64,000 nt of DNA from Pseudovirgaria hyperparasitica. Its lineage: Eukaryota. The notes beneath the pieces are model-generated. The model was not told the origin of the DNA. It saw only the letters and a list, made by a program, of their open reading frames with translations, and ran no database searches. Made by a program: the position numbers and the translations under genes. The DNA lies in the NCBI GenBank assembly GCA_010093815.1, contig ML996567.1; one strand, given 5' to 3'. Positions 21,726 to 58,600 of the stretch are shown one piece after another (the stretch's first letter is position 1; each line of letters opens with the position of its first letter).

Positions 21726-21758
21726 ATTATTAGTTAAGGGCAGCCCTTAACTAATAAT
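21726..21758. repeat. 33-bp palindrome ATTATTAGTTAAGGG-CAG-CCCTTAACTAATAAT
   Basis: Perfect 15-bp inverted arms with a 3-bp spacer; recurs throughout the window. Confidence 0.95.
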
Positions 21759-21783
21759 TAGGTAGGTTTTTAGGCGCCTAATC

Positions 21784-24711
21784 TTAGTACTTGAGGTCGC
21801 GAGCCAGCTCCTAAAGAATCGTGTCGCTTATCTTAGAGAGGTTAGATTCCTCCTTATCGGATAGTTTATTAGGCCTCTCCTATCTATAGAAGTTCTCTTT
21901 AACGTTATCTAGGCCCGCGTTAGACTCGAATTTCTTAAAATTAATTAGCTACTTAGTGGCGCGCGCCTCGTTAAATTCCTTCTAGAACGACCTATCCCTA
22001 TAGACTAGCCTTTTCTATCTTACTATTTTCTTAAAGGTCTCCACGAATACCCTCGAGCCCTCCTTAAACTAGGCGTCTACCTTAGCTTTAAGTTATTAAG
22101 GACTTGCGTTAAGCCACGTAGCTACCTCTTCTTTTACCTCCTAGCTATTCTATCTTTTACGGCCGACTAATGCGTTACTAACGGCGTTAAAACTTAGGAG
22201 TTAAACTACGGCTAGGAAGGCAAAAGGAATCGTGCTATATTTATTAGAAAATTCTAATAGAGACGTGGGTCCCGGAGTTAAATTCCTATAAGCTACTATG
22301 AGTTATTCCTATATACCTATTTTAGGTACTTCTATTATTATATAATTAGGGCCAATCGCGATATACCATAGAAGTATTATACGTCTTCCACCCTTTACGG
22401 GACCCTAGGCGCCGTGTATTATTAGTAGGCTAGAGATACGTACTTTAAGGGACTAGTAGGGGACCGGGACGAAGGGACTAAATCGTTTCTTATTATCTGT
22501 ATTATAGATCTTATCGTTAATAGCCGTGATTATACCGTTTCGATTGACCCCCTCGCGGAGCTTAGCCTTCGACTACTATTTATTTAAGAACTTATAGAAG
22601 TGGGGAATAATTATAGTATAGTCGTTACTTCGTTTGTCGTCGAGACTAATACTCCTCTAGATTATATTAAACCCGTGTCTATTACTAGGATCGAGGATTC
22701 GATTAATGGCGTTATCGAGATACTTAAAACCCGTCTTATTACCCCTATCCTAGGACTTCGCATAGTACGGGTACGAGATTAGATAGTAGTTAAGGTCGGG
22801 CCGAAGAGTAATATAGGTAAGCTAGTAAAGTAGGTATTACCTAATAAACTATTAGATATAGGAGTGGTATATAGTTCGTAGCTAGCCGTAGTTTAATTTC
22901 TTGTTAAACATGCGCTAGTAGTACTTATATATATTAAATTCATCCCTCGCGAGTTCTAGAATACTCTTATTAAGTATAGAGGTTATCTTTTTAAGTAGCT
23001 CGAAGAGCCCTTTAATATTAATACTTCCGGTACGTTCTTACTCGTCGAAGAGTTATCTATCTATTCTACCGTCCTCCTTCTAAATTATAAATATAATACT
23101 AGTAAGGATAGTTTTAATATTAATAACTTACTTCGGGGTCTCTAGGGCCTAGTAATAATAGATATCTAATGCCTCTATCGGATAAGGTGGCCGCGCGTAC
23201 TTCGCAAACTAGGTATAGCGGTTCTTATAAACTTTAAGGGCCCCCACGTTATCTCTAAACTTATATACCATTTTAAGTCTCGCTACTAGGTTTAAGTAGG
23301 ACACGCTAACGAGTATATTATTCTTTCTAGCCACGTCTTAGTAATACTTATAGTAGACTTTATACGGAATAGCCATGTTACCTATCTACGCTTTCTAGCG
23401 CACTAGTAGGGCCATTCCCTTAATACTTATGAAATTCTTCTTTAATAATATAGCTGCCTTAAAAGTCTTCGTTACTAAAGACGCGTATTAATACTTCTTA
23501 GACTCGTCCTCTTCCTTAACTAATACTATCGTCTTAGGGTACGAACTAAGAATAACCGGGGATTATCGTGTAGGCGCCCCTAGTAATTACTAAGGGCCGG
23601 TAGATAAGGTATATCCACGAGTAGGTTTTATCGGCGTGGCCGTAACGGGCACTAAAGAGGTTCTTATATAGCCCGGTAAGAGACGTATACTAGTAGTAGT
23701 AGGAGAAGTACTTACTTTAAACGGACGACTAGCTTTAAAGAGACGACGTACTACTAAACTAGAAGGTATACTTCGTGGAGGGGACTTTACTATAGACGTT
23801 ATCTACGCTAGTTTTAGCGATGGTAAGGTCTAAGACGGAGGCGATATACTTATCTCTTTAATTTATAGGTAGTATTTAACGGGCCTATAAACCATTCTAC
23901 TTATCTATAACTATTAACTAGCGGGGATAATAAGTCCCGTCTTATTATAGAACGTTAGTTTATTTTATTAGCTAGGGTAGTTCGAGAGTTACTAGAGAGA
24001 TAGACCGTCCTTATTACTATTACTAGCTAGGGCGGTATTAATATTAGAGCTCTAAAGATATACCTTAATTCCCCTTCCCTTCTATCCCTAGCTAATTCGG
24101 GACTATAGGGATACGTTTAACTAGTTCCTCGCTCTCGCCTATATCCGTATTTATAAGAGCGCTACTAGCTTTTCTATAAAGTTCTATATTTACTAGAGCT
24201 ATCCGAGGGCGGATTAGAGTAACTAGCTATTATTATTAGGGAGGTCTTTTCGCTAGTTTTATAGGATTACATTTTTAGCTTTTAGAATGCGGGAGTTAGT
24301 ATCTCTTTTACGACGAATTATCTCGTGGACTTCTTTCGGAATAGAGGAGTTAATCTTTACCTTACTATACCCTATTACGGCTCCTACTTCCTAGAAGAGG
24401 TTAACTATACTACTTAAGAGCTATTCTACGAGGCTAGTAATATAAAGGAGATTATTAAACATATCTAGAATATAGTCCTATCGCTCTTACGGGTCCTAGA
24501 TAGCGATAATTCAGTTAATAGTAGACTTATTTACTTCCGTAGCTTCTATAGCCTATCTATACGGAGTAGTAGATGGCCTTAATACCACGATAGCTATCGA
24601 TAGCCCTACTTTAGTACTTACGACTCTTAACTAGAACCGCGTCTATCTTATTAGTGCTTAACGATCTTATAACTCTTTACGGGTAGGCGTTTTCTTTTTC
24701 GGTAGGGCTAT
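21784..24711 (-). pseudogene. Extra ORF of C1 (~976 codons): N-terminal helical and Ser/Pro-rich region plus a putative PhyH-like 2OG-Fe(II) dioxygenase domain
   Basis: One frame with no frameshift seen, broken by RIP-type stops. ISYPYYTK...GFK[H]LD (~22714-22778); IIHGA (His codon intact at 22414-22416); RR..L[P]WY. Start and stop are inferred. Confidence 0.75.
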
Positions 24712-24867
24712 TATTATTATCGGTTCTATTAGCGAGTTATATTCTAAGAAGAGATAGTTAAGTAAGGCGGAAGTGGAGGAGGAGGTTTTATTAATTAAGG
24801 AGGTATAGAGAGGTGTAAGAGGGAAGAGTTATATACTATCTTAAGTTCTCTTTTTATGCCTCCTTAA

Positions 24868-25340
24868 ATGCCGGGTATATAGTAATTTTTATAAATGATC
24901 CTTACTAACGGCCGTAGGCCCGTATACGTGTCGAATCTATGAATAAATATATACTAGGTATATAGGAAATCTATAAATGAATGTATCTACCGGGTATATA
25001 GCGGAATCTATAAATGAATAGATACCGGGTATATTCTTATCCTTATAAGACTTCCTATAAGTATCTTTTTCTTCTATACCTCCTCCTTCTTTTCTTCCTT
25101 ATTAGTTTCTAATAGGGCCTATTCTATAGTAACGAAATAGGCCTTCGATAGGTAGGCTTCGATTACACGACCGGCTTTAATATATAGTAGGTGGAATTCG
25201 CGTAAACGCTATTATATCTTCTTTCGAGCATTGCTTACTTTAATAATAAGTTTTATTATTTTATAGTAATAATAGGGTTCATTATCCTCTTTTAATAATG
25301 GAGTTTATCGTCCTTTTTCGATAATAGAGTTCATCGTCAT
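24868..25340. repeat. Tandem repeats in the spacer between pol and the extra ORF of family C
   Basis: About three units of ATCTAT(A/G)AAT(G/A)AAT...ACCGGGTATATAG (24936-25035) and three to four ~25-bp units of ATAAT(A/G)GAGTT(C/T)ATCGTCCT (25240-25340). The same repeats occur in C2 and C3. Confidence 0.8.
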
Positions 25341-28300
25341 AAGACTACTTTTATAAGCATTCCTTCCCTCCTTAAAAAAAACTTCTATCCCCTAGAAGGA
25401 GATATTAATTCTAGGGAAACGTAAATATTCTTCTCTATTAAAGTCTTATAGAGTAGAAATTACTACTTCTACCCGGGTTTATGTAGCGTCATTAAGGTAT
25501 TCCGTAAGTTATTTATAATAGTTTTCCTTATCGCTACTCTTCTTATTTTCCTCGGTAATTCTTCTAATCGGTAGTTATAAGGGCTCGTTATAACTCTCGT
25601 TACTTATATTTCTTATAAAATATTTCTTTAATCTATAGCTAGGAAACGTCCCTCTAAGCATGGCTCTATTAAGCTCCGCGAGCTTATAAGTATAATTAAA
25701 CACGGACTAGATTCTATATGGCCCCCTCTAATACTACCTTAGCTTCCGCCCTATATCCTTCTATTACTACGAGTCGTATAGGAGGATAATTATATTAACT
25801 AGTAATAACTCTTAACGAAGGTAATAGTCGTTATTCTATACCTCTCTCGATTCCTTACGCGTTCGTATCGTGTGGGTATAGGCCTCCTTAAGATTCTCGG
25901 ATCTTCTCTTAAGTTATCTAGCTCGAAGAGTAAGTAAGTCGGACGTTAATTACACCTCGTCCTAAGGGAGTATTCGGAGCGACTCGAATTCGACTTCGAT
26001 AGGCATAATTAGTTTATAGCTAAGCACGAGGTATATAGTACTATACCCTATACTAGTATATATCGTTATTCTATCTATCTAGACGACCGCATGGAGGTAG
26101 CCGGGCTAGTTCTTAAATCCGCTATTAGTTATCTTCGCGAGAGCATTAGCGAGTAGTATAAAACTTCTCTTAATAATCCTATTTACTTAGGGATTATATA
26201 TAGATATAATCTTCTAATAAATTCTATAGAGTCGGAGGAGCTTCTCTATAGTATCTATATTTTCTCTACTACCGTTATAGGTAATTTTAGGAATAATTCT
26301 ATATCTATAGATCACGTTCTTAAAGAGGAACTTTATAACGACTATAGACGTAGCCACTGTATATGCCTCCGCCTTAGTCTATCCGCTTAGCTATTCTTAT
26401 ATAGATACTACTTTACTATACCCTATAGAAGGTAGTAGCGTTATTATATCTAAGTATATTCTTTACTAAAGAATAGGCGTTATAATATAGTAGAGCCCTT
26501 TATTAAGACCTCCGAGGAGTTTACTTCGTCGTTAACATTCGTTATAGATTTTCACGTGCTATCGTATATCTCTATGTATACCTACCTACTAATACTTATC
26601 CTTAATCCTTCTAAGGGTCTCTTCGCTACCTCTATAATCTATCTTATTATAAGTAGTAGTAATTATATACGCCCTAGTATTCGGATCCTTAATTACTCGT
26701 GTATATTAGCGATACCTATCTCCTCTCCGCTAGAGTATTCGGTTATATATAAGGAACTTTAGGTAGTCGGTTATAAAGGCCTTATACACTCGGTCGGTTA
26801 GGTCGGTTAGCCTCTTAAGTATAGTAAGGTATTTCGTAATCCTCTACTATTTATCGCTATATTCATCTATTAAGGGAGACTTAATAGCGGTATAGTCGAG
26901 TATCCCTATTATATAATCTCTCCCGCTAACGGGCTTAATTAATAACGTCTCTAGCACGTCTATATATAGAGCTATATCTATAAACTCGTCTAGGTTAAAG
27001 ATAGAGACGTCTAGTGGTTCTTCTCCTTCGTATATCCGTAAGATACTATCGGTAACTACGTTACGCTTCCTAGGTATGTACCTAACTATAAAGTTCTATA
27101 GCTAAATCCACGCGAGCTACCTAGTAACGAGCGCCCCTAGTAAGTTAGTTATAGTACGGTTAATTTAAGCGACTAGAGTATTCGTGTCTATTTCTATAAT
27201 AAAGTATATACTATAGAGGTATTACCGGAACTTCTATAACGCGTGGAGGAGAGCTTAGTACTCTAGCTTCACGGTGTCGTAGTTTCTCTTAGCTTTTAAC
27301 TATATTCCTCTATTATACCGCGATAGCTAACGTTTACGATTCTTATTCTCCTATATTAACGTAGCTCCCTACCTAATATTACTAGAGTCTACTACTAGAA
27401 TTATATCTCCCGTATCTATTCTATACCGTAATATTATTAGTGCGGGAGTAGTAGTTAGAGCTATCTTTAGCGCGTCTATCGAGGTCTACTCCTTAGCTAT
27501 CTACTACTAGGCCGATTTATTCTTTAATAGTATAAATAGTAGCGATGCGATAATAGTATACCCGGGGATCTATATCCGGAAATATATATAAACGCTAAGG
27601 AAGGCTCGCACATTCGTCGTGTTTTTATAGGGTTTCTAGTCCCTAATAGTAGTAACCTTTTTATTACTCGGTCGCCTCCCTTTAATATCGTAGACGTATT
27701 CTATAACGTTAGCGGCTTTAATATACTACTAAGTCTTCTTACTACTTAGGGCGTATCCGGCGCGCTCTATATCCGCGAGAACCTTATCCACGTTAATTAA
27801 ATGTTCTAGGATATACCTATGAATTCTAGGTAGAGCCTCCTTAGAGTTATATTTCGTCATAGGTCCTTTAATACCTAAGTTATCTAGGAATAGTAGAGCC
27901 CTCTCCGGGATATATTCTTATATAATAGTTAATATAATCCTAACGAACTAAGCTACTAAATTAGTAGCCCCTTAAGGTAATATTATCCTATATAGTAATT
28001 CTAGGGGCGTTATAAACCCTATTAAGTCTTAGTAATACTCTACTAATAGAATCTAATCGTATTCTAAGAAGAAGTTAGTAAATGTTAAGACGGCTATCCC
28101 CGTAAAGTGCTCCGAGAACTCTTTATATAAGGGCGGCGTGGCCGTATCACGAATGGTGACTTGGTTAATTTCTATTACCGAATTAATTAACCTATAATCT
28201 CGTTCCTTATTAGCTTCCTTCTTCTTTTCTATAAGAAAATAGACGTTTTAATAAGGACTACTATAGGGCTTAAGCCTTCTACTATTAAGACGCTCTTTTA

Positions 28301-29024
28301 GGATTATAAGTACCTTTCTATAAAGGGCTCTAGGAATATTAAAGTTCTTAGTCTACTATACCTTGTATTCTACCGTTCGGATCTCCTACGGAGATGCCAC
28401 CTCTTTATTAAATTTACTAAGGTATAAGAATTCCTATACTAGTACTTCCTCACGATATAATAAGATTATATATAGTAACTTAAGTTCTATAGGACGTAGC
28501 TCTATTCTAATCTTTAGCTAACTTATATATAGAGGCGTTAGACGTGTTCCTAGCGGGATAGTTACCCTTTAAGGCTCTATTAGCCTATTAAACGCGTTAA
28601 GGCCTAGGTAAATGGCTAGAAGAAGTACCTACTATGCGATTACTCGTTCACGCTAGTCTAGATACCCTAATAGATTCCTAGGAACCTTTCGGTAGGCTTT
28701 AGAGTTATCCACGGGGTGTACTTTAACTCCCTTCCTTTTATATATAGTAGCTATACTAAATCCCTTTAATACCCCGGATGAATACCGTCTTTAGAGGCTA
28801 GTAGAGCCTACTATAAGCTATTCTATTATTATACCTTATTTATATATAAAGGTAGCGTACCTTACCGCCGTAACTAGGGCGGCTAAGTCATCTTTTCTTA
28901 ATAACTAAGTAATATTTTTAGGCCGGATTTTCTCGGAAAGCAACTCTATATAACTTATTTCTATATCTATATAAAAATATAGCCTATCCCCTTCGTTAGT
29001 AGATTTACTAGACCCTATTTAGTA

Positions 29025-29063
29025 CGGATTATTAGTTAAGGGTAGCCCTTAACTAATAATCCG
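29025..29063. repeat. Shared palindrome inside C1 pol (between protease and RT)
   Basis: CGGATTATTAGTTAAGGG-TAG-CCCTTAACTAATAATCCG, 18-bp arms. Confidence 0.95.
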
Positions 29064-31745
29064 GCTTAACTCCGGCTTCCGGCGATATACTCCGCTATAT
29101 AGTTAGTCTCTAGCTATAGAGTTACCCTTCTTCTCTAAGACTAGAATATACTTATCTAGACTAGTTTTAAAGGTTATACGTTCTTATCTATATACGGAGT
29201 AGACTATTAAGAGTACTTACCTAGAGGCTAACCTCTATACTATAAGTAAGGCCTATCTAGTATATAGCTCCCCTAGGATAAGATTATAATTAAGTTTACT
29301 ATATACGAATATTAAAGTAGCTATAACGATCCGACCTATACGGATAGAGTATTACTATACTATTCCTATAAATAGAGTACTATACTAAGTAGCGCTAACT
29401 AAACTTAAGTTCTTTATATATAGTAGAAGCGAAGATATCGCTAGCCTAAGACGCCTTATAGCATCTAGTCGAATACTATTTACCTATGCGCCACTATTAA
29501 ATAGTACTATACTAGTCGCCCTTTTAGAACTAACTTCTATAGGGTACCTTAGATACTCGGCTACTAGCCTTACTATCCCTTCCTTAAGCTAATTAATATC
29601 TTATTATATAATGGCCGTCCCTATAGTATAGAGGGGTACTAATACATTAAGTTTATTTATCTTAGGAGCCATAGTATAGTTATTTCTTCCTTTCTTCTCG
29701 GCTCTCTCTTCTTAAGCCTCGTGGACCTCTCTAGCTATAAAGTTAGGGGCGCCCTTCTCGAATACCGCATGATATAAGTCGCTATTAAGGCTTAATAGTT
29801 CGCTAATAGTAATGTTTATAGTTATCTCTAGAACGCGTACTAGCCATGCTTTACTAGCTTCTATACTTAGCCGCTATCCTTTGCGTAGATAGTTATTAAG
29901 CTTAACGCCTTAGATATATATCTTTAACTAGGATTTAGGCTATCCCCTTTATCTATCTTATCCTCTAGCGCCGTTAGCTCTTATTTAGACGTTCTCTAGT
30001 CGCTACTCTTCTTACCGTCCTTCTATTCCTTAATAATTCTTATATACTACCCTTCACGCATTCCGCGGAGATAGGCGATCTTTCTTTCCTTAGTATAATT
30101 AGGTATACTCTTCGTAATCCCCCTTCTAGATATTATAAGTATAGCGGGCTCTTCTAGGGCTATCTCCTTATAGATATATCTATTACTAGCTACGTCGAAG
30201 CGTTCGTGGAATTCTATATATCTATCTTTCTTACTCTTAGGCGACGTGACTTCTTCTTCCGAATCGCTATCTACTAAGGCCTAGTAGGGACCCTTTATAG
30301 GTTTTATACTAATACTATATACCGGTACTCTCTATAAAGCGTTAATATTTACTATAGATATAGAAACCTTCACTCCTCCTCTATACTAGCTTAGACCGTT
30401 TTAAACCGTTACTACGTAGTTCTAGATAGCTTATAGAGTAGCTTATAGCCCTACCGAGGAGGGTAGTAATAGGATTTCTTCTCTATTCGCCCCGAAACGC
30501 CCTTAGAATACTTATACCCCGTTAATATTTAGTAATCCGTCTCTAATGTATCCTACTATCTCCGGACATCTATATATTAGGTAATCTCCTCCGTACGTAA
30601 TATATACGATTAGTCTTCGAGGCCTATTCTAGACTATAACGCCTTCTTAGGAGTCTCGGGTAGAGATGTATTCTCTATTCTATATATAATTCTATAGATA
30701 AACTTACGTTAGTTCTATAGACATGCCTTATACTTAGAGATATACTAAAAGATTTAGCCTTCGCGTCTACTAGTTAATAATAGCTAAAAGTAGCTTAGGT
30801 TCGTACTTCTTAAGGGATAGAAATAAGAGATTAGAGGTAAAGTAGGACTTCATCTTAATTAACGTAAGGTCTAGTTTACTAAATCTCTCTACTATCTTAT
30901 TAAACTTATCCGATTCTAGCGCGATATATACTATGACTAGAGAGGGGTAGTTAAATTTATTAGTTCTTCTTTCTTTATATAACTACTCTTCTAAGCCGGT
31001 CTTCTTACTCCCTATCTTTAATTTATAGTATATGGCTATAGCTAGCTCTTATACGGCTAAGTACTTATTAATACGAGCTAGTTCCTTAAGTACTCTAGCC
31101 TTTCGTGATACGAAGCCATAGATAATTACCTAGTTATAACTATGTACTTCTATCGTAAGTTAATATTTCTCTATAGCCCGAGCCTTAAGACTATTAGGCA
31201 GCCCTTCTAGGAAGAGCTCTATTCGTGAATACGAGCTTAGGCTTTCTTTAGCCGTAAGTTTCTCTATAATAATATAATACTAGGAGTAGTATATAGGGAG
31301 AGAGTAGGATGGGTCTACTTTAACCATTTCCACGTATTTTCGGACAAAGTAGATGGTGCCTTCCTTAAGGGTAGAGTTAAATAGAGAGAATTCCTTTAAT
31401 AATTCTTCACGTAGCGTGGCCTACTACTATTTCTAAAACCTACTTATTCCTTTAATAGTAGGACGGAGATAGTCCTCGTAGTATAACGGTAGGGAGGTTA
31501 TCTTCTTATTAGGCGGAACTTTATAGTTTATATATATATCCTCGTACTTCTAAAGAAAGGCTATAATATTTATTCCTTTAAAGCGCTCGGGGGCTAGGGT
31601 AGATAGAGATACTATCCTTCCTTATCGCGTAAATACTACGAAGAAGTTAAGTATCTCTCTACGAGTTACTAGGTCGTTATTTTAAGCTCCTATCGCACTA
31701 TTACTAGTAGTAGGTATACTAGTAGAGACGCTGGGGGTAAGGTTA

Positions 31746-31770
31746 TTAGTTAAGGAATTACCTTAACTAA
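31746..31770. repeat. Degenerate copy of the shared palindrome in C1 gag
   Basis: TTAGTTAAGG-AATTA-CCTTAACTAA; equivalents at ~51292-51316 and ~53120-53144. Confidence 0.8.
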
Positions 31771-32108
31771 AGGCTGGTCTAATACGTCTACCTATAACAC
31801 CTATCATCCCTTCTCTATATTAACTAATCCCTTTATAAGGTAAACTATTACTATCGTCTTTATCGATATAATAATAATAATAATAATATTATATAACTAG
31901 GTAGAGTAGTACTCTACAGGCCTATGCCTTCTCTAGTCTAAGCCACTATATAAGAAGAAACCCTATAGGGAAAAACTTCCTTATGTCTATAACTACATCT
32001 CGTTAAACCTCTATTTCGTCTTAAGTATACAGCTATAGGGTACGCCTATTAGCCTATAGCCTATATTACCGTTATTTTACCCTTAGGTAGCACGTGTAGG
32101 TACGGAGG

Positions 32109-32139
32109 TTATTAGTCAAGGGCTACCCTTAACTAATAA
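32109..32139. repeat. Shared palindrome in the LINE 3' UTR
   Basis: TTATTAGTCAAGGG-CTA-CCCTTAACTAATAA; retains one unmutated CpA. Confidence 0.93.
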
Positions 32140-32219
32140 TCGGGGTTCTCCCGGGGTTCTTCCGGTATATATCGGGTTGCTACTAGCGTATGCCGGGTCT
32201 CTTCCGGTATATATTTCCG

Positions 32220-35200: not shown

Positions 35201-35440
35201 ACTATAATAAGAGTGGTATTAATCTATAAATGTGGAAGAGGACTCGTCTTTCTAGTCCTAGAGGGTATATAGTGTGGTATCCGGGGTATATGGTTGGTTT
35301 GCTCGTCTAGTAGTATTTATAGGGTTCCTAGATGGCGAGTATTATAGCCCCGGTCTCTTCGAGGAGCGTCGCCTAGTTCTCTCTTTTATATTATACGTTT
35401 ACCTATATAATTCGGAGTATATTCTAGTCCCTTATTAGGT
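32220..35440 (-). pseudogene. LINE ORF2: AP-endonuclease, reverse transcriptase, C-terminal CCHC
   Basis: ILAI[Q]EP ~35322-35342; ILLGDFNL[H]HRW ~35022-35057; DKAPGLDGILN (ORF track 34023-34238); GIP[Q]GSTISPILF ~33511-33549; GYAD[D] ~33444-33458; [C]KA[C]...RH.LA.[C]P ~32356-32408. Confidence 0.92.
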
Positions 35441-35499
35441 ACTAGGGAGTATATATACCTATATACTTATTCCTTAGAGGCGCGACTATCCTCGCGCGG

Positions 35500-37949: not shown

Positions 37950-37953
37950 ATAG

Positions 37954-41321: not shown

Positions 41322-41346
41322 TAGGTAGGTTTTTAGGCGCCTAATC

Positions 41347-47101: not shown

Positions 47102-47156
47102 NNNNNNNNNNNNNNNNNNNNNNNNNNNNNNNNNNNNNNNNNNNNNNNNNNNNNNN
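47102..47156. other. Assembly gap
   Basis: Run of N. Confidence 1.
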
Positions 47157-48569
47157 ATTCGTCGTGTTTTTATAGGGTTTCTAGTCCCTAATAGTAGTAA
47201 CCTTTTTATTACTCGGTCGCCTCCCTTTAATATCGTAGACGTATTCTATAACGTTAGCGGCTTTAATATACTACTAAGTCTTCTTACTACTTAGGGCGTA
47301 TCTAGCGCGCTCTATATCTATAAGAACCTTATCCACGTTAATTAAATATTCTAGAATATACCTACGAATTCTAGGTAGAGCCTCCTTAGAGTTATATTTC
47401 GTTATAGGTCCTTTAATATCTAAGTTATCTAGGAATAGTAGAGCCCTCTCCGGGATGTATTCTTATATAATAGTTAATATAATTCTAACGAACTAAGCTA
47501 CTAAATTAGTGGCCTCTTAAGGTAATATTATCCCACGTAGTAATTCTAGGGGCGTTATAAACCCCGTTAAGTCTCGGTAATACTCTACTAATAGAATCTA
47601 ATTATATTCTAAGAAGAAGTTAGTAAACGTTAAGACGGCTATCCCTATAAAGTACTCCGAGAACTCTTTACACGAGGGCGGTGTGGCCGTATTATAAATA
47701 GTAACTCGGTTGATTTCTATCGCCGAATTAATTAACCTATAATCTCGTTCCTTATTGGCTTCCTTCTTCTTTTCCACGAGAAAATAGGCGTTTTAATAAG
47801 GACTACTATAGGGCTTAAGCCTTCTACTATTAAGACGCTCTTTTAGAATTATAAGTACCTTCCTATAAAGGGCTCTAGAAATATTAAAGTTCTTAGCCTA
47901 CTATACCTTATATTCTACCGTTCGGATCTTCTACGGAGGTGCCACCTCTTTATTAAATTTACTAAGGTATAAGAATTCCTATACTAGTACTTCCTCACGA
48001 TATAATAAGATTATATATAGTAACTTAAGTTCCGTAGAACGTAGCTCTATTCTAATCTTTAGCTAACTTATATATAGAGGCGTTAGACGTGTTCCTAGCG
48101 GGATAGTTACCCTTCGAGACTCTATTAGTCTATTAAACACGTTAAGGCCTAGGTGGACGGCTAGAAGAAGTACCTACCGTGCGATTACTCGTTCACGCTA
48201 GTCTAGATACCCTAATAGATTTCTAGGAACCTTTTAGTGGGCTTCGGAGTCATCTATAGGGTATACTTTAACTCCCTTTCTTTTATATATAGTAGCTATA
48301 CTAAATCCCTTTAATACCCTAGATGAATACCGTCTTTAGAGACCGGTAGAGCCTACTATAAGCCGTTCTATTATTATACCTTATTTATATATAAAGGTAG
48401 CGTACCTTACTACTATAACTAGGGCGGCTAAGTTATCTTTTCTTAATAACTAAGTAATATTTTTAGGCCGGATTTTCTCGGAAAGTAACTCTATATAACT
48501 TATTTCTATATCCGTATAAAAATATAGCCTATCCCCTTTATTAGTAGGTTTACCAGACCCTATTTAGTA

Positions 48570-48608
48570 CGGATTATTAGTTAAGGGTAGCCCTTAACTA
48601 ATAATCCG
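48570..48608. repeat. Shared palindrome inside C2 pol
   Basis: Same sequence as 29025-29063. Confidence 0.95.
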
Positions 48609-51600
48609 GCTTAACTCCGGCTTCCGGCGATATACTCTACTATATAGTTAGTCTCTAGCCACGGAGTTACCCTTCTTCTCTAAGACTAGAATATACTTAT
48701 CTAGACTAGTTTCGAAGGTTATATATTCTTATCTATATATAGAGTAGACTATTAAGAGTACTTATCTAGAGGCTAACCTCTATACCGTAAGTAAGGCCTA
48801 TCTAGTATATAGCTCCCCTAGAATAAGATTATAATTAAGTTTACTATATATAAATATCGAAGTAGCTATAACGATCCGACCTATACGGATAGGGTATTAC
48901 TATACTATTCCTACGAATAGAGTACTATACTAAGTAGTACTAACTAAACTCGAGTTCTTTATATATAGTAGAAGCGAAGATATTACTAGTCTAAGACGCC
49001 TTATAGTATCTAGTCGAATACTATTTACCTATACGCCACTATTAAATAGTACTATACTAGTTACTCTTTTAGGACTAACTTCTATAGGGTACCTTAGATA
49101 CTCGGCCACTAGCCTTACTATCCCTTCCTTAAGCTAATTAATATCTCGTTATATAATAGCCGTCCCTATAGTATAGAGGGGTGCTAATATATTAAGTTTA
49201 TTTATCTTAGGAGCCATAGTATAGTTATTTCTTTCTTTCCTCTCGGCTCTCTCTTCTTAAGCCTTATAGATCTCTCTAGCTATAAAGTCGGGGGCGCCCT
49301 TCTCGAATACCGTATAATATAAGTTACTATTAAGGCTTAATAGTTCGCTAATAGTAATGTCTATAGTTATCCCTAGAACGCGTACTAGCCATACTTCGCT
49401 AGCTTCTATACTTAGCCGCTATCCTTCGCGTAGATAGTTATTAAGCTTAACGCCTTAGATACGTGCCTTTTAACTAGGATTTAGACTATCCCCTTTATCT
49501 ATCTTATCCTCCGGCGCCGTTAGCTCTTATTTAGACGTTCTCTAGTTACTACTCTTCTCGCTATCCTCCTATTCCTTAATAATTCTTATATACTACTCTT
49601 TACGTATTCCGTAGAGACGGGCGATCTTTCTTTCCTTAGTACGATTAGGTATACTCTTTATAATCCCCCTTCTAGATATTATAAGCATAGCGGGCTCTTC
49701 TAGAGCTATCTCCTTATAGATATATCTATTACTAGCTATATCGAAGCGTTTATAGAATTCTATATATCTATCTTTCTTACTCTTGGGCGACGTGACTTCT
49801 TCTTCTAAATTACTATCCGCTAAGACCTAGTAGAGACCCTTTATAGATTTTATACTAATACTATATACTAGCACTCCCTATAAAGCGTTAATATTTACTA
49901 TAGACGTAGAAACCTTCACTCCTTCTCCGTACTAGCTTAGGCCGTTTTAAACCGTTACTACGTAGTTCTAGATAGCTTATAGAGTAGCTTATAGCCCTAC
50001 TAAGGAGGGTAGTAATAGGATTTCTTCTCCGTTCGCCCCGAAACGCCCTTAGAATACTTATACCCCGTTAATATTTAGTAATCCGTCTCTAATGTATTCT
50101 ACTATCTCCGGACATCTATATATTAGGTAATCTCCTCTATATGTAATGTATATAATTAGTCTTCGAGGCCTATTCTAGAATATAATACCTTCTTAGAAGT
50201 CTCGGGTAGAGACGTATTCTCTATTCTATATATAATTCTATAGATAAACTTACGTTAGTTCTATAGACATGCCTCGTACTTAGAGATATACTAAAAGATT
50301 TAGCCTTCGCGCCTACTAGTTAATAATAGCCGAAAGTAGCTTAGGTTCGTACTTCTTAAGGGATAGAAATAAGGGATTAGAGGTAAAGTAGGACTTTATC
50401 TTAATTAACGTGAGGTCTAGTTTACTAAATCTCTCTACTATCTCGTTAAACTTATCCGATTCTAGCGTAATGTGTACTACGACTAGAGAGGGGTAGTTAA
50501 ATTTATTAGTTCTTCTTTCTTTATATAACTACTCTTCTAAGCTAGTCTTCTTACTCCCTATCTTTAATTTATAGTATATAGCTATGGCTAGCTCTTATAC
50601 GGCTAAGTACTTATTAATACGAGCTAGTTCCTTAAGTACTCTAGCCTTTCGTAATACGAAGCCATAGATAATTATCTAGTTATAACTATATACTTCTATC
50701 GTAAGTTAATATTTCTCTATAGCCCGAGCCTTAAGACTATTAGGCAGCCCTTCTAGGAAGAGCTCTATTCGTGAATACGAGCTTAGGCTTTCTTTAGCCG
50801 TAAGTTTCTCTATAATAATATAATACTAGGAGTAGTATATAGGGAGAAAGTAGGATAGGTCTACTTTAACCATTTCCACGTATTTTCAAACAAAGTAGAT
50901 AGTGCCTTCCTTAAGGGTAGAGTTAAATAGAGAGAATTCCTTTAATAATTCTTCACGTAGCGTGGCCTACTACTATTTCTAAAATCTACTTATTCCTTTA
51001 ATAGTAGGACGGAGATAGTCCTCGTAGTATAATAGTAGGGAGGTTATCTTCTTATTAGGCGGAACTTTATAGTTTATATATATATCCTCGTACTTCTAAA
51101 GGAAGGCTATAATATTTATTCCTTTAAAGCGCTCGGGGGCTAGGGTAGGTAGAGATACTATCCTTCCTTATCGCGTAAATGCTACGAAGAAGTTAAGTAT
51201 CTCTCTATAAGTTACTAGGTCGTTATTTTAAGCTCCTATCGCACTATTACTAGTAGTAGATATACTAGTAGAGACGCTAGGGGTAAGGTTATTAGTTAAG
51301 GGATTACCTTAACTAAAGGTTAGCCTAATGCGTCTACCTATAATACCTATTATCCCTTCTCTATGTTAACTAATCCCTTTATAAGGTAAACTATTACTAT
51401 CATCTTTATTAATATAAGGTTCACGGTATCCTACTTATATTATTATCTTCGTATAAGGCGTTCCTAAAGTAGTATACTCGTATAGCCGTATTTATAAATA
51501 ACAGCTATAGTAGTACTAAATAGGTTATATTTATCGTTTTTAAACTCTTCTTTACTACTTTATCTAGCCCTATTTTATATTCTATTCCCCTAAGATATTT

Positions 51601-51820
51601 TCGAGTCGTGCTATTACCCGTATTAGTATGCGCATGCTTTTTACGGCTACTTTTAAGAGGCTAGCCCCTAGCGACTCTAGACTCCCTGTTTTCCGGACTC
51701 ATGGCTTCGATCTAGTAAGTCTAGACTACCTTATTAGGCACGCTATATACTTCCTCTAAGCTAGTTTCGGAGTCCTAATCTCCCTCTATAAGTTCGTAGT
51801 CCGGGTATAACCTCTAAAAT

Positions 51821-52147
51821 TATAGTAAGCTATTACTACGTGTGTCCCTTTTATAAATGGCTATGTTTCTAGTATAGTAGTTACGACGAACTCATAAGTA
51901 TCTCTCCTAGGTATTATGAGTTCTCTTTGAACGCACGATCTTAATTAATTCTTTAATAGCTAAGCCTAATAATCAATATCTATAGAGGCCTATGAACGTA
52001 AGGAAAGGTCGAATAGTCGAATATTAGTAATAGGGGAAGCGCGCCAAGCAGAATGACCAAGGAAAACGCCCTCCTTAAGTATATAATAAAGCCATGTAAT
52101 CGAGCTAGGGACACATACATGTGGGGCTGTAGGAGCGGCCTTCCACA
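51821..52147 (-). repeat. 5' LTR of C2 (45-bp deletion variant)
   Basis: Ends ...TTCCACA, followed by CTAG. Confidence 0.95.
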
Positions 52148-52617
52148 CTAGTTCTTTTAATGTAATCGTCTTCTATATAGGGACGTACCTAGATATCTTT
52201 ATAAGTCTATCCACGATAATAAGAATTAAATTATAACTTATTCTAAGCCTCTCGCTTAGAGGTAAGTTAACTATAAAATCTATAGTAATATCTTCCTATA
52301 TAAAGAGGGGGACTAGTAGAGGCTATAAGTTTCTATATAGCTTATATCTAGGTGCCTTTATTCTTTAATAAATCGGATAAGTAGCTATCTATTCTTTAAC
52401 GTACTTAGGTATATCTTCCTAAAAATAGTACTAATAAATCGAGCTTAGGGTGCGTATATACCCAAAATGTTCTACTAGGTTAGTGTTATAGTATCGGCTA
52501 ACTATAGTAAATCGTACGTTATCTATCGGTATATAGTACTTTCTATTATAGTAGAGTAAGCTATCTATAAAGGTCTACTTATAGTCTACTTCGGTCTATA
52601 ATAACCTATCTTACTAT
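52148..52617 (-). pseudogene. pol: Element D pol: linker and integrase N-terminal zinc finger
   Basis: [G]HFGY.RTL ~52446-52473; DIT[M]DF.V[D]LP ~52260-52292; ILIIVDRL.K ~52198-52227. Confidence 0.88.
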
Positions 52618-52689
52618 TTTAGAGGTCGTACCCGGACTACGAACTTATAGGGGGAGATTAGGACTCCGAAACTAGCTTAGGGGAAGTAT

Positions 52690-55600
52690 ATGGCGTGCCT
52701 AATAAGGTAGTCTAGACTTACTAGATCGAAGCCACGAGTCCGGAAAACAGGGAGTCCGGAGTCGCTAGGGGCTAGCCTCTTAAAAGTAGCCGTAAAAAGC
52801 ATACGCATGCTAACACGGGTAATAGCGCGACTCGAAAATGTCTTAGGGGAATGGGATATAAAATAGGGCCAGATGAAGTAGCAAAGAAGAGTTCAAAAAC
52901 GATAAATATAACCTGTTTAGTACTACTATAGCTGTTATTTATAAACACGGCTACACGAGTACACTACTTTAGGAACGCCTTACACGAAGATAATAATATA
53001 AGTAGGATACCGTGAACCTTATATCGATGAAGACGATAGTAATAGTTCACCTTATAAAGGGATTAATTAACATGGAGAAGGGATAATAGGTGTTATAGGT
53101 AGACGTATTGGGCTAACCTTTAGTTAAGGTAATCCCTTAACTAATAACCTTACCCCTAGCGTCTCCACTAGCACACCTACTACTAGTAATAGTGCGATAG
53201 AAGCTTAAAATAATAACCTAGTAACTCGTAGAGAGATGCTTAACTTCTTTATAGCATTTACGCGATAAGGAAGGATAGTACCTCTATCTACCCTAGCCCC
53301 CGAGCGCTTTAAAGGAATAAACATTACGGCCTTCCTTCGAAAGTACGAGGACATATATATAAACTACGAAGTTCCGCCTAATAAGAAGATAACCTCTCTA
53401 CTATTATACTACGAGGACCATCTCCGTCCTACTATTAAAGGAATAGATAGGTTTTAGAAATAGTAGTAGGCTATACTACGTGAAGAATTATTAAAGGAAT
53501 TCTCTCTATTTGACTCCGCCCTTAAGGAAGGCACTATCTACTTTATCCGAAAATACGTGGAAATGGTTAAAGTAGACCCATCCTACTCTCTCCCTATATA
53601 CTACTCCCGGTATCGTGTTATCACGGAGAAACTTACGGCTAAAGGAAGCCTAAGCTCGTATTCGCGAATAGAGCTCTTCCTAGAAGGGCTGCCTAATAGT
53701 CTTAAGGCTCGGGCTATAGAGAAATGTTAACTTATAATGGAAGCACATAGTTACGACTAGGTAATTATCTATAACTTCGTATTACGAAAGGCTAGAGTAC
53801 TTAAGAAACTAGCTCGTATTAATAAGCACTTAGCCGCATAAGAGCTGGCCATAGCCATGTACTATAAATTAAAGATAGAGAGTAAGAAGACCAGCTTAGA
53901 AGAGTAGTTACATAAAGAAAGAAGAACTAATAAATTTAGCTACCCCTCTCTAGTCGAAGTACACGTCGCGCTAGAATCGGATAAGTTTAACGAGATAGTA
54001 GAGAGATTTAGTAAACTAGACCTTACGTTAATTAAGATAAAGTCCTACTTTATCTCTAATCTCTTATTCTTATCCCTTAAGAAGTATAAACCTAAGCTAC
54101 TTTCGGCCATTATTAACTAGTAGGCGCGAAGGCTAAATCTTTTAATATACCCCTAAGTATAAGACATGCCTATAGAATAAATATAAGTTTATCTATAGAA
54201 TTATATATAGAATAGAGAATACGTCTCTACCCGAGACTCCTAAGAAGGCGTTATAGTCTAGGATAGGCCTCGAAGACCGATTATATATATCACGTATAGA
54301 GGAGATCACCTAATATATAGATGTCCGGAGATAGTAGGATACATTAGAGACGGATTACTAAATATTAATAGGGTGCGAGTATTCTAAGAGCGTTTCGGGG
54401 CGAACGGAGAAGAAATCCTATTACCACCCTCCTCGGTAGAGCTATAAGCTACCCTATAAGCTATCTGGAACTACGTAGTAACGGTTTAAAACGGCCTAAG
54501 CTAGTATGGAGGGGGAGTAAAGGTTTCTACGTCCGTAGTAAACATTAATACTTTATAGAGAGTGCCGGTATATAGTATTAGTATAAAATCTACGAAGGGT
54601 CCCTACCAGGCCTCGGTAGACAGCGATTCGGAAGAAGAAGTCACGTCGCCCGAGAGTAAGAAAGATAGATATATAGAATTCCACGAACGCTTCGACGTAG
54701 CTAGTAATAGATATATCTACGAGGAGATGGCCCTAGAAGAGCCCGCTATACTTATAATATCTAGAAGGGGGATCACGAAGAGTACACCTAATTATACTAA
54801 GGAAAGAAAGATCATCTATCTCCGCGGAATGCGTAAAGGGTAGTATATAAGGATTATTAAGGAATAGGAGGACGGCGAGAAGAGTAGCGACTAGAGAACG
54901 TCTAAATAAGAGCTAACGGCGCCTAAGGATAAGATAGATAAAGGGGATGGCCTAAATCCTAGTTAAAAGGCACGTATCCGAGACGTTAAGCTTAATAACT
55001 ATCTACGCGAGGGATAGCGGCTAAGTATAGAAGCTAGCGAAGTATAGCTGGTACGCGTTCTAGGGATAACTATAAATATTACTATTAGCGAACTATTAAG
55101 CCTTAATAGTAACTTATATCGTGTGGTGTTCGAGAAGGGCGCCCCTAACTTTATAGCTAGAGAGGTCCACGAGGCTTAAGAGGAGAGAGCCGAGAAGAAA
55201 GAAAGAAACGACTATACTATGGCTCCCGAGATAAATAAACTTAATATATTAGTACCCCTCTATGCCACGGGGACGGCTATTATATAATGAGATATTAATT
55301 AGCTTAAGGAAGGGATAGTAAGGCTAGTGGCCGAGTGTCCGAGGTATCCTATGAAAGTTAGTTCTAAAAGGGCGACTAGTATAGTACTATTTAATAGTGG
55401 CGCGTAGGTAAATAGTATTCGACTAGATGCTACGAGGCGTCTCGGGCTAGCGATATCTTTACTTCTACTATATATAAAGAACTCGAGTTTAGTTAGCGCT
55501 ACTTAGTATAGTACTCTATTCGTGGGAATAGTATAGTAATACCCTATCTATATAGGTTAGATCGTTACGGCTACTTCGATATTCGTATATAGCGAACTTA

Positions 55601-58600
55601 ATTATAACCTTATCCTAGGGGAGCCATATACTAGGCAGGCCTTACTTACGGTATAGAGGTTAGCCTCTAGGTAAGTACTCTTAATAGTCTACTCTATATA
55701 TAGATAAGAACGTGTAACCTTTAAAACCAGTCCGGATAAGTATATTCTAGTCTTAGAGAAGGAGGGTAACTCCGTGGCTAGAGACTAACTATATAGCGGA
55801 GTATATCGCTAGAAGCCGGAGTTAAGCCGGATTATTAGTTAAGGGCTACCCTTAACTAATAATCCGTACTAAATAGGGTCCGGTGAACCCACTAACGAAG
55901 GGGATAGGATATATTTTTATACGGATATAGAAATAAGTTATATAGAGTTACTTTCCGAGAAAATCCGGCCTAAAAATATTACTCGGTTATCGAGAAAAGA
56001 TGACTTAGCCGCCCTAGTTACGGCGGTAAGGTACGCTACCTTTATATATAAATAAGACACGATAATAGAACGGCTTATAGCAGGCTCCACCGGCCTCTAA
56101 AGACGGTATTTATCCGGGGTATTAAAGGGATTTAGTATAGCCACCATATATAAAAGAAAGGGAGTTAAAGTACACCCTATAGATGACTCCGAAGCCCACC
56201 GAAAGGTCCCTAGGAATCTATTAGGGTATCTAGACTAGCGTGAACGAGTAATTATATAGTAGGCACTTCTTCCGGCCGTCCACCTAGGCCTTAACGCGTT
56301 TAATAGGCTAATAGAGCCTCGAAGGGTAACTATCCCGCTAGGAATACGTCTAACGCCTCTATATATAAGTTAGCTAAAGATTAGAATAGAGCTACGTCCT
56401 ACGGAACTTAAGTTACTATATATGATCTTATTATATCGCGAGGAAGCACTAGTATGGGAATTCTTATACCTTAGTAAATTTAACGAAGAGGTGGCACCTC
56501 CGTAGGAGATCCGAACGGTAGAATATAAGATATAGTAGGCTAAGAACTTTAATATTCCTAGAGCCCTTTATAGGAAGGTACTTACGATCCTAAAAGAGCG
56601 TCTTAATAGCGGAAGGCTCGAGCCCTATAGTAGTCCTTATTAAAACGCCTATTTTCTCGTAGAAAAGAAGAAGGAAGCTAATAAGGAACGAGATTATAGG
56701 TTAATCAATTCGGCGATAGAAATCAACCGAGTTACCATTCGTAATACGGCCACGCCGCCCTTATATAAAGAATTCTCGGAGTACTTCACGGGGATAGCCG
56801 TCTTAACGTTTACCGACTTCTTCTTAGAATATAATTAGATTCTATTAGTAGAGTATTACCGAGACTTAACGGGGTTTATAACACCCCTAGGATTACTATA
56901 CGGGATAATATTACCTTAAGGGGCCACTAATTTAGTAGCTTAGTTCGTTAGGATTATATTAACTATTATATAAGAACATATCCCGGAGAGGGCTCTACCA
57001 TTCCTAGATAACTTAGGTATTAAAGGACCTACGACGAAATATAACTCTAAGGAGGCCCTATCTAGAATTTATAGGTATATCCTAGAATATTTAATTAACG
57101 TGGATAAGGTTCTTACGGATATAGAGCGCGCCGGATACGCCCTAAGTAGTAAGAAGACTTAGTAGTGTATTAAAGCCGCTAACGTTATAGAATACATCTG
57201 CGGTATTAAAGAGAGGCGACCGAGTAATAAAAAGGTTACTACTATTAGGGACTAGAAACCCTATAAAAACACGACGAATGTACGAGCCTTCCTTAGCGTT
57301 TATATATATTTCCGGATATAGATCCCCGGGTATACTATTATCGCATCGCTACTATTTATACTATTAAAGAATAAATCGGCCTAGTAGTAGATAGCTAAGG
57401 AGTAGACCTCGATGGACGCGCTAAAGATAGCTCTAACTACTACTCCCGCACTAATAACGTTACGGTATAGGATAGGTATAGAAGATATAATTCTAGTAGT
57501 AGACTCTAGTAACGTTAGGTGGGGGGCTACGTTAATGTAGGAGAACGAGGATTATAAATATTAGCTATCGCGGTATGATAGAGGAATATGGTTAAAAGCT
57601 AAGAGAAACTACGACACCGTGAAACTAGAGTACCGAGCCCTCCTCCACGCGTTATAGAAGTTCTAGTAATACCTCTATAGCACGTACTTTATTATAGAAA
57701 TAGACACGAATACTCTAGTCGCTTAAATTAACCGTACTATAACTAACTTACTAGGGGCGCTCGTTACTAGGTGGCTCGCGTGGATTTAGCTATGGAACTT
57801 TATAGTTAGGTACGTACCTAGAAAGCGTAATGTAGTCGCCGACGGTATCTTATAGATGCACGAAGGAGAAGAACCACTAGACGTCCCTACCTTTAACCTA
57901 GACGAGTTCGTGGATATGGCTCTATATATAGACGTGCTAGAGACGTCGTTAATTAAGTCTATTAGCGGGAGAGATTACACGATAGAGATACTTAACTATA
58001 CCGCCATTAAGTCTCCCTTAATAGATAAATATAGTAATAAATAGTAGAGGATTACGAAGTATCTTACTATACTTAAGAGGCTAACCGACCTAACCGACCG
58101 AGCGTATAAGGCCTTTATAACTAACTACCTAAAGTTCCTCGTGTGTAACCGAATACTCTAGCAGAGAGAAGATAGGCATCGCTAATATACACGAGTAATT
58201 AAGGATCCGAATACTAGGGCGCGTATAATTACTACTACTCACGACGAGATAGATTATAGAGGTAGCGAAGGGACCCTTAGAAGGATTAAGAATAAGTATT
58301 GGTAGGTAGGTATACGTAGAGACGTGCGATAGCACGTGAAAACCTATAATAAATATTAATAACGAAGTAAGCTCCTCGGAGGTCTTAATAAAGGGCTCTA
58401 CCACGTTATAACGCCTATTCTTTAGTAAAGAATATACTTAGACGTAACGACACTACCACCTTCTATAGGGTATAGTAAAGTAGTATCTATACGAGAATAG
58501 CTAAGCGGATAGACTAAGGCGGAGGTATATACGGCGGCCACGTCCATAGTTATTATAAAGTTCCTCTTTAAGAACGTAATCTATAGATATGGAATCATTC

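Follow-up and report, generated by a model that had tools for sequence, protein, structure and literature searches.

Two retrotransposons of unrelated classes, a Gypsy element and a LINE, carry the same short palindrome at five independent sites. Our tentative reading is that the palindrome derives from a cut-and-paste DNA transposon, either as a miniature made of nothing but terminal inverted repeats (TIRs) or as an excision remnant. The master copies of both families would have acquired it before they amplified, and their descendants would have inherited it. We rate this account a little under even, and all of it is inference: where the palindrome came from (a DNA transposon), how it arose (as miniature or as remnant) and when.

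A palindrome far beyond chance

The palindrome is real, and its recurrence in the window (the whole 64,000-nt stretch of DNA that was analysed) is far beyond chance. Its core is 25 bp long, with 11-bp arms around a C(A/T)G centre, and the longer perfect palindromes run to 31-39 nt. A search with the 25-nt pattern TTAGTTAAGGGNNNCCCTTAACTAA, allowing at most three mismatches, gave 10 matches in the window, starting at 21730, 29032, 31746, 32112, 36886, 41293, 48577, 51292, 53120 and 55835; 100 dinucleotide-preserving shuffles gave 0. The pattern TTAGTTAAGGG-NNN-CCCTTAACTAA matched at 10/10 of the places named in the original prediction and nowhere in 100 shuffles. All ten were recovered, to within 1-4 nt of where they had been put, and no further place turned up in the window, even in a RIP-tolerant Y/R pattern scan. 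The centres are, as that prediction had it, CAG, CTG, TAG and CTA, and the sequence does keep GTCAAG in one arm of the LINE copy at 32112 (32109 in the prediction). When perfect palindromes were counted, this family stood clearly apart by its 14-18-nt arms. The window holds 26 palindromes with arms of at least 9 nt, compared with 2-14 in 10 Markov simulations.

Two unrelated hosts

The hosts occupy these positions in the window:

21202..31871, minus strand: Gypsy copy C1, 3' part (3' LTR to gag)
31872..37152, minus strand: Tad1-like LINE inserted into Gypsy copy C1, with a target duplication of ~21 nt and an (ATT)n tail
37153..37953, minus strand: Gypsy copy C1, 5' part (leader and 5' LTR)
40813..52151, minus strand: Gypsy copy C2, uninterrupted, with TGTGG..CCACA LTRs and a 4-nt target duplication
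52616..63613, plus strand: Gypsy copy C3

The first host is a Ty3/Gypsy LTR retrotransposon, with LTRs of ~370 nt that begin and end TGTGG..CCACA, 4-nt duplications and domains in the order PR-RT-RNaseH-IN. Alignment to a Gypsy polyprotein covers its RT, RNase H and integrase, RT_RNaseH is matched in Pfam at E = 7e-10, and the gag-pol frame of C3 is continuous over ~2100 codons when RIP stops are read through. The second host is a Tad1-like non-LTR retrotransposon, a clade name taken from the original prediction and from fungal matches rather than from a tree. It has an RVT_1 domain (Pfam, E = 3.5e-19) and a zinc-knuckle ORF1, and homologues of its ORF2 carry PF03372, PF14529 and PF00078. The earlier assertion that two unrelated retrotransposon classes are involved is thus sound: RT_RNaseH sits in a Gypsy-type element, RVT_1 in a LINE whose ORF2 homologues have endonuclease and RT.

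Five independent sites, shared by descent among the Gypsy copies

The palindromes themselves, none assigned to a strand, are as follows:

21727..21757: site A in C1, 14-15-nt arms, CAG centre on the plus strand
41290..41320: site A in C2, place and sequence as in C1
29025..29063: site B in C1, perfect palindrome of 39 nt, 18-nt arms, TAG centre
48570..48608: site B in C2
55828..55866: site B in C3 (the plus-strand copy)
31746..31770: gag-start variant in C1, 10-nt arms, different 5-nt centre
51292..51316: gag-start variant in C2, flanked by the 6-nt direct repeat AGGTTA
53120..53144: gag-start variant in C3, flanked by the 6-nt direct repeat AGGTTA
32109..32139: site D, LINE 3' UTR, one arm keeping GTCAAG
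36883..36913: site E, LINE 5' UTR, upstream of the zinc-knuckle ORF1

Because self-alignment resolves the hosts into three copies of one Gypsy element (C1, C2 and C3) and one LINE, the ten matches amount to five independent sites: three in the Gypsy family (3' region, protease-RT linker and gag start) and two in the LINE, one in each UTR. The DNA is heavily RIP-mutated throughout. The Gypsy copies differ at 1157 of 9810 aligned columns (12%), 1146 of the 1157 differences being transitions, and despite that divergence the palindromes stand at orthologous places in all scorable copies. They were inherited by descent. A public-run contig from yet another, diverged Gypsy copy (30 differences over 161 nt) reaches 24 nt into site B.

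The five sites have sharp borders and identical arms. The 11-nt core arms are perfect at sites A, B and E and carry one RIP-type mismatch at site D; the C(A/T)G centre, counting its RIP derivatives TAG and CTA, is found at all four of these canonical sites, and TA lies on both sides of the 25-nt core at the same four (4/5 independent sites). We compared the flanks as 45 pairs, by local RIP-tolerant alignment and by alignment anchored on the palindrome. Among the local alignments the best z was 3.7, with none anchored at the palindrome; among the anchored ones the best p was ~0.007, and homology between flanks was not significant. This upholds the claim that the flanks differ, and the capture of a single larger fragment, which extended flanking homology would have betrayed, finds no support in these 45 pairs. 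Nor can the palindrome have been 'convergently acquired', if that means independent point evolution, for an identical sequence of 25-31 nt must have been physically copied. All five sites fall within two families (~16.6 kb of unique sequence), with 0 in the other ~24 kb; simple arithmetic on the self-alignment coordinates gives a rough chance of ~0.01 for such a restriction.

Site A lies ~150 nt inside the 3' LTR, in a 3.7-kb 3' region that has no Pfam match. It is unscorable in C3, where a run of N (62427-63087) begins exactly where the palindrome is expected; the gap was probably caused by a 31-nt palindrome, repeated thousands of times, that breaks short-read contigs.

Site B had been described as within pol and read in frame. 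The frame reading stands: of the frames around the site, the coding one has the fewest stops in 3/3 Gypsy copies (17-18, compared with 34-47 in the other two), and it reads the palindrome as ..IIS*GLPLTNN.. The placement needs correcting, in that the site is not in a catalytic domain but in the unconserved linker that follows the protease motif and precedes the region of RT similarity; the alignment of the 150 best RT homologues starts ~90 residues downstream. Since SQG.PLT is absent from the 276 homologous Gypsy and LINE proteins that we fetched (0/276), site B is not an ancestral coding motif. Only one of the palindrome's three possible registers is stop-free, and the polyprotein uses it. 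The 25-nt core with a 2-nt TA duplication would make 27 nt, or 9 codons.

The three copies that had been called degenerate and placed in gag are indeed present; they lie upstream of the recognisable gag core and may be in the 5' UTR. This variant keeps 20/20 arm bases, and its centre differs by transversions, which RIP cannot make. One side lacks TA, and a 6-nt direct repeat flanks it instead.

In the LINE, site D is 237 nt from the 3' end of the element and roughly 75 nt past the likely end of ORF2, and site E is 239 nt from the 5' end.

A derivative of a cut-and-paste transposon?

On the account we tentatively favour, the palindrome would be DNA that was physically inserted rather than evolved in place. 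Its anatomy would be that of two TIR-transposon tips set head to head, with an 11-nt arm and its inverse on either side of the C(A/T)G centre. Two routes could lead there. A 'TIR-only' miniature may have been moved by a transposase supplied in trans; or a full element may have excised, leaving end-pieces that annealed through their self-complementary GGGC.GCCC tips, with an A.A or T.T mismatch in the middle whose repair would give CAG in some cases and CTG in others. In the master of Gypsy family C this would have happened three times and in the master of the Tad1-like LINE twice, while both masters were still active. The one copy clearly inside the polyprotein would have survived because it added whole codons, was read in the one register free of stops and fell in an insertion-tolerant linker. 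Both families would then have amplified enormously and been RIP-mutated, so that present copies carry their palindromes by descent. A total length of 31-39 nt would mean that the TA and the neighbouring target bases were themselves symmetric and extended the 25-nt core. Complementarity past the shared sequence (18-nt arms at site B, less elsewhere) is compatible with plain insertion only if the target was symmetric. The gag-proximal variant, with the same arms and a different middle, would be expected of alternative junctions or deletion derivatives of one TIR pair, although its 6-nt repeat without TA is at odds with a single mode of insertion.

At none of the sites did copies with and without the palindrome turn up, and insertion is something we infer rather than observe. 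The TA flanks are no proof of a target duplication, because TA is itself palindromic and equally expected from an extended palindrome. Half-site scans of the 64-kb window at up to 2 mismatches found only the palindromes and a few weak internal matches, and no parent element with these arms at its ends was found there. We know of no Tc1/mariner cleavage that leaves 11 nt per side. A remnant of this kind would keep 11-14 nt per end, against the 2-4 nt of Tc1/mariner elements given in PMC6943129.

Other readings

Of the alternatives in the original prediction, the cis-element and the tiny mobile unit both still stand, and we tentatively favour the transposon-derived one. The cis-element, the main rival, which we judge somewhat unlikely, would be a selected sequence of whatever origin, kept for function. 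It might act in RNA, as a stable hairpin or as a pairing site between molecules, where any two copies could pair over ~30 nt and so bring about genome dimerisation or 5'-3' cyclisation, or in DNA, as a site of dyad symmetry bound by a dimeric protein, whether of the host or derived from a transposon. The predicted folding speaks for it: strong sense-strand hairpins at all five sites (RNA, -10.6 to -26.4 kcal/mol, z -4.1 to -8.4), with 0/200 shuffles folding as well at each of the 5 sites and predicted DNA folding in agreement. So does placement, with one copy per LINE UTR, 239 and 237 nt from the ends, and Gypsy copies near the 5' and 3' ends plus one internal. The gag-proximal copy, with intact arms around an altered centre, looks like a stem whose loop is free to change, and at sites A, B and E the pairing reaches past the shared sequence, to arms of 15, 18 and 15 nt. 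The motif is confined to by far the two most amplified families, to which 46,935 contig pieces of public run X1 align, and that restriction could equally mean selection for function. Against this, the sense-strand loop is CUG in the Gypsy element and CAG in the LINE, with no common loop sequence, and Rfam 15 covariance models gave 0 matches at gathering thresholds over the whole window and, at E <= 1 over 21500-37960, one match away from the palindromes. Invariance among copies is uninformative, as the motif after RIP probably has almost no RIP-susceptible dinucleotides, and the nearest protein homologues are at most 40% identical and are proteins without DNA. We know of no need for dimerisation in LINEs. 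Function would, moreover, leave the arrival at five unrelated places unexplained, and a copying mechanism would still be needed.

A bolder reading would make the 25-31-nt unit itself a mobile or actively copied element of a fungal nuclear genome, one that inserts in frame into retrotransposon genes and whose copies serve the host RNAs as long-range or intermolecular pairing sites, aiding the amplification of just these two families. We think this unlikely; if true, no smaller mobile unit of a nuclear genome would be known, and eukaryotes would have their own version of the REP elements of bacteria or the GC clusters of mitochondria. Less likely again is short-patch recombination between the elements, by gene conversion or by RT template switching at a hairpin in co-packaged RNAs, with no transposase involved. 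Both hosts do replicate via RNA and reverse transcription, palindromic RNA copies could, from their predicted folding, pair with one another, and a contig joins the LINE 3'-UTR palindrome directly to the 5'-UTR one, skipping 4773 nt (joint 32138 to 36912), as recombination between these two copies would produce. The joint appears in one contig in each of two public runs from the same sample; its shorter side is just 23 nt in contigs built from k-mers, so a 31-nt repeat in the assembly graph may have produced it artificially. Recombination normally carries flanking sequence across, yet none is shared here, and a first copy in a new context is impossible without pre-existing homology. Hardly credible at all is an artefact of assembly or library, for instance a hairpin adaptor or linker that stayed in the assembled sequence. 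The motif does disturb assembly, as the N run in C3 attests, and the public-run contigs (~150-300 nt) break at the palindrome. An artefact would not be expected at orthologous positions in copies 12% different, with RIP-type variants inside the motif (GTCAAG vs GTTAAG; CAG, TAG, CTA) and read in a coding frame; the motif is also in public-run contigs, though these perhaps come from the same sample as the assembly.

Should the transposon-derived reading hold, DNA-transposon debris would have been fixed in frame in retrotransposon proteins and in UTRs and copied thousands of times, marking a now-vanished DNA transposon where RIP erased most other evidence. Should the palindrome be mobile alone, or have a function in RNA pairing, very small nuclear elements would have gained a new kind, and LTR and non-LTR retroelements would have a cis-signal in common.

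Comparison with known systems

The palindrome shares with Tc1/mariner (Stowaway-like) MITEs its perfect terminal inverted repeats, TA on both sides at 4/5 sites, a non-coding nature and a place inside other repeats. It differs in having only 3-5 nt between the repeats within a total of 25-39 nt, in a TA that is indistinguishable from an extension of the palindrome, and in being seen, within the 64-kb window, without a parent element, an empty site or a copy outside the two retroelements. Scans of metagenomes, viruses and prokaryotes for the palindrome returned only unrelated hairpins with TTA or TAA centres. MITEs usually measure tens to hundreds of nt, and a 25-39-nt unit falls below any MITE size known to us, which makes it doubtful that it could move by itself. 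We know of one long staggered cut, the 17-nt cut of the P element, which makes 8-nt duplications; no such duplication was seen at the palindrome sites.

Very short dispersed hairpin palindromes are familiar as bacterial REP elements, Rickettsia palindromic elements and the GC clusters of yeast mitochondria, and they may occupy coding sequences without breaking the frame. Their genomes are bacterial or organellar and the enzymes that mobilise them are different, and we know of no REP- or GC-cluster-like system in a fungal nuclear genome. The resemblance would be one of mode of action, not of membership.

PMC6943129 describes excision footprints of Tc1/mariner elements, which leave 2-4 nt per end. 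In the canonical Sleeping Beauty footprint, TACAGTA or TACTGTA, the terminal bases of both ends lie between TAs, and footprints with altered centres occur (PMC6943129). Like our palindrome, TAC(A/T)GTA is symmetric, bounded by TA and has A or T at its middle, and the altered centres of the non-canonical footprints resemble the gag-proximal copy. We nevertheless rejected such a footprint as the identity of the palindrome, which has 11 nt per side between the C(A/T)G centre and TA, against 2-4 in those footprints.

On the RNA side, PMC5445492 reports a conserved hairpin site in fungal GalEa Copia elements. With the DIS and Ty1 5'-3' pairing it makes a group of self-complementary or hairpin sequences in retroelement RNA that act in reverse transcription or packaging, and in form our palindrome is like them. 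Those signals are family-specific, lie by the PBS or leader and are much shorter, whereas the palindrome is common to an LTR element and a LINE and also sits in the middle of a polyprotein.

A palindrome at five independent sites

The pattern TTAGTTAAGGG-NNN-CCCTTAACTAA, 25 nt long and searched with a tolerance of three mismatches, has ten matches in the window and none in 100 dinucleotide-preserving shuffles, and these matches recover every place at which the original prediction had put a palindrome common to a Gypsy and a LINE retrotransposon. The details were borne out as well. Centres of CAG, CTG, TAG and CTA are all seen among the copies, the copy at 32112 (noted earlier at 32109) retains GTCAAG in one arm, and all three degenerate copies assigned to gag were found, with identical 10-nt arms but a different 5-nt centre. 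When all perfect palindromes were counted, this motif family, with arms of 14-18 nt, stood far beyond background; overall, 26 palindromes in the window have arms of at least 9 nt, against 2-14 in ten Markov simulations. The palindrome is a real feature, beyond chance. RIP-tolerant pattern and half-site scans of the 64 kb yielded no further convincing copies.

Self-alignment placed the matches in one LTR retrotransposon, present in three copies (C1 to C3), and in a Tad1-like LINE nested in the first of them.

21202-31871 and 37153-37953, minus strand: Gypsy copy C1
40813-52151, minus strand: Gypsy copy C2
52616-63613, plus strand: Gypsy copy C3
31872-37152, minus strand: LINE, interrupting C1

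The ten matches thereby reduce to five independent sites.

Site A: Gypsy element, in the 3.7-kb region without a Pfam match, about 150 nt internal to the 3' LTR
Site B: inside the Gypsy polyprotein frame
Variant copy: directly upstream of the recognisable gag core of the Gypsy element
Site D: LINE 3' UTR
Site E: LINE 5' UTR

Within each family the palindromes are inherited by descent; at the five sites they were acquired independently. Site A is unreadable in C3 because a 661-nt run of N (62427-63087) begins exactly where the palindrome is expected to start (..cccggat then N). The matching stretch of C1 is 712 nt, and the run is probably an assembly gap due to the repeated palindrome.

The host elements

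The Gypsy family has LTRs of about 370 nt (TGTGG..CCACA) with 4-nt duplications alongside, a Pfam match to RT_RNaseH and, in C3 with stops read as X, a single uninterrupted gag-pol frame of about 2100 codons. A Gypsy-type polyprotein aligns to it across reverse transcriptase (RT), RNase H and integrase at 23-28% identity. At 11.3 kb the element is unusually long, and about 3.7 kb of it lies between integrase and the 3' LTR (41139-45000 in C2, with counterparts in C1 and C3); scanned in three sense frames, that region gave no Pfam match.

The LINE carries RVT_1 (Pfam) and a zinc knuckle visible in the translation of ORF1; it has an (ATT)n tail, and about 21 nt of its target are duplicated. Its ORF2 homologues, up to 35% identical, have endonuclease and RT domains. 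Its two palindromes are nearly equidistant from the element ends (239 and 237 nt). A CCGG..ATATA motif lies within 100 nt of the palindromes, on the ORF side, at three of three loci (32151-32214, 36830-36854); these include a tandem pair in the 3' UTR, spaced 42 nt, and show length variants in the run contigs.

The entire window is RIP-mutated: the index (CpA+TpG)/(ApC+GpT) was 0.13-0.37 in all eight regions tested, and the three Gypsy copies, compared with one another, vary at 1157 columns, 1146 of them by transitions. From the public sequencing run X1, 46,935 contig pieces were matched to 21600-37500, and a diverged Gypsy contig from a public run extends 24 nt into site B.

What remains of the window (1-21201 and 37954-40812) is likewise RIP-mutated repeat; further Pfam annotation covered two sub-regions of the window. 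Direct repeats at 3431-3656/10558-10783 and 11435-11635/19017-19217 look like the LTR pairs of two more elements. The DNA enclosed by the second pair has a G+C content of 47-49% but a RIP index of 0.20, and 37954-40812 encodes, on its minus strand, an integrase SH3 domain of Tf2 type. Two other elements contain perfect palindromes of their own, at 233-259 and 15363-15395, with arms of 12 and 14 nt, different spacers and a common 11-nt arm, TATATTAGTAT. That arm consists of very common RIP words, which leaves it uncertain whether these two palindromes are related, be it to one another or to the main family; a link to the main family through TATTAGT was rejected, this 7-mer ranking 22nd of 5868 in the window.

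Reading frames

Around site B, each of the three copies shows 17-18 stops in the frame that contains the protease motif and RT, against 34-47 in the other two frames. The palindrome itself has three possible registers, just one of them stop-free, and in the protease-RT frame site B reads ..IIS*GLPLTNN... It lies about 150 codons past the protease motif and about 90 codons ahead of the Gypsy RT similarity, therefore in a linker and in no catalytic domain. The in-frame reading that had been claimed for both gag and pol holds at site B. The gag-proximal copy has the same register, but it may belong to the 5' UTR, since its frame is crowded with stops on the upstream side and a likely start codon is downstream. 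In the locally most open frame, sites A and D take the register ending in two stops, to which we gave no weight. The nearest Gypsy protein homologues are 31-40% identical, in alignments that do not span the linker, and the encoded peptide, SQG.PLT, is absent from all 276 homologous proteins fetched.

Flanks and ends

Extended homology between the flanks would have pointed to capture of one larger fragment. Neither local nor anchored tests gave a significant alignment: RIP-tolerant local alignment of 150-nt flanks reached at most z = 3.7 among 45 pairs, none of them palindrome-anchored, and anchoring the alignment at the edge of the palindrome, over 45 nt, yielded p of about 0.007 for the best of 45 pairs. 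A single capture, which the original prediction had listed as grounds for refuting it, is therefore unsupported. Nor did the outer segments of the LINE (237 and 239 nt) align significantly with each other (z = 2.4 and 0.9). A few bases beside the palindrome, CGGATTA / TAATCCG, are common to several flanks (A-left, B-left, B-right and D-right), and at site B the perfect palindrome extends to 39 nt.

Taken as a unit, the 25-nt core is immediately bordered by TA, left and right, at sites A, B, D and E; TA being self-complementary, such flanks are indistinguishable from a longer palindrome. Counted this way, site B measures 25 + 2 = 27 nt, and a length of nine codons is compatible with its persistence in a functional polyprotein. 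At the gag-proximal variant a 6-nt direct repeat takes the place of these flanks, reading AGGTTA (+ strand) in C2 and C3 (51286-51322 and 53114-53150); in C1 the right-hand repeat is AGGCTG, which suggests its pre-RIP form.

How the palindrome might have spread

For one and the same sequence to stand at five unrelated places, it must have been physically copied. The most economical reading is a putative origin from a DNA transposon, and it is the tip-to-tip form between TA dinucleotides, together with the other junction in the gag-proximal variant, that leads us to it. Two inverted transposon tips would have been joined head to head between TA dinucleotides, leaving an A-or-T centre; this debris or miniature of a candidate cut-and-paste element would have entered the active masters of both the Gypsy and the LINE family, and the masters would then have amplified, palindromes included, before RIP set in. 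Identical arms around another junction, as in the gag-proximal variant, could reflect alternative repair or an independent derivative. We hold this course of events tentatively, at a little short of an even chance. Counted against it is the flank structure of the gag-proximal site, which differs from that of the other four. Half-site scans of the window found no parent element with these arms. The two most successful families contain all five sites, and the remaining 24 kb or so contains none; for this distribution, coordinate arithmetic gives a rough chance of about 0.01. No empty site came to light either: when 21600-37500 was compared with two public runs of one sample, no row omitted the palindromes; the short contigs end there and are uninformative on empty sites.

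The main rival is a selected cis-acting element, which we consider rather unlikely. All five sites are predicted to form strong hairpins, as RNA and as DNA, with none of 200 shuffles as good at each; the copies could pair with one another, and each LINE UTR has one. The loop, however, is not the same in the two families, no Rfam family matches, and function leaves the spread to five places unexplained. Ranked behind it, and improbable, is spread by recombination or template switching, for which the evidence is a palindrome-to-palindrome joint in k-mer contigs: the LINE joint 32138 -> 36912, seen in two runs of the same sample, in a single contig each. It is possibly a short deletion derivative or an artefact of the k-mer graph. 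That the palindromes themselves are an assembly artefact is very unlikely, given their orthologous positions in diverged copies and the RIP variants inside the motif.

Comparison with known elements

Pattern scans matched five metagenome loci, one prokaryote locus and no viral one; with TTA or TAA centres and unrelated, bacterial-looking contexts, these were rejected as relatives. A hammerhead-like reading (a possible pre-RIP CTGATGA) was set aside, having no Rfam support and differing flanks. So were Helitron, piggyBac and PIF/Harbinger end parses: the left-hand TTA and the right-hand TAA stand in inverted, not direct, orientation, TTAA is probably the RIP product of TCAA, and the hairpin is too near the putative 3' end. 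Our literature search found no description of such an element; for the arm sequences, the 20 papers listed of 155 with a match were all on unrelated subjects, mostly studies of humans, animals or plants. PMC5445492 concerns fungal Copia elements, whose conserved hairpin is a different one.

Returning to a DNA-transposon origin, the form of the palindrome matches that of a miniature element consisting of terminal inverted repeats alone. To our knowledge, it is shorter than any MITE; this, and the length kept on each side, count against the reading. The form is equally that of a Tc1/mariner excision footprint, but an enlarged one: the canonical Sleeping Beauty footprint, according to PMC6943129, is TACAGTA or TACTGTA, and unlike the Tc1/mariner leftovers described there, our palindrome keeps 11 nt per side.
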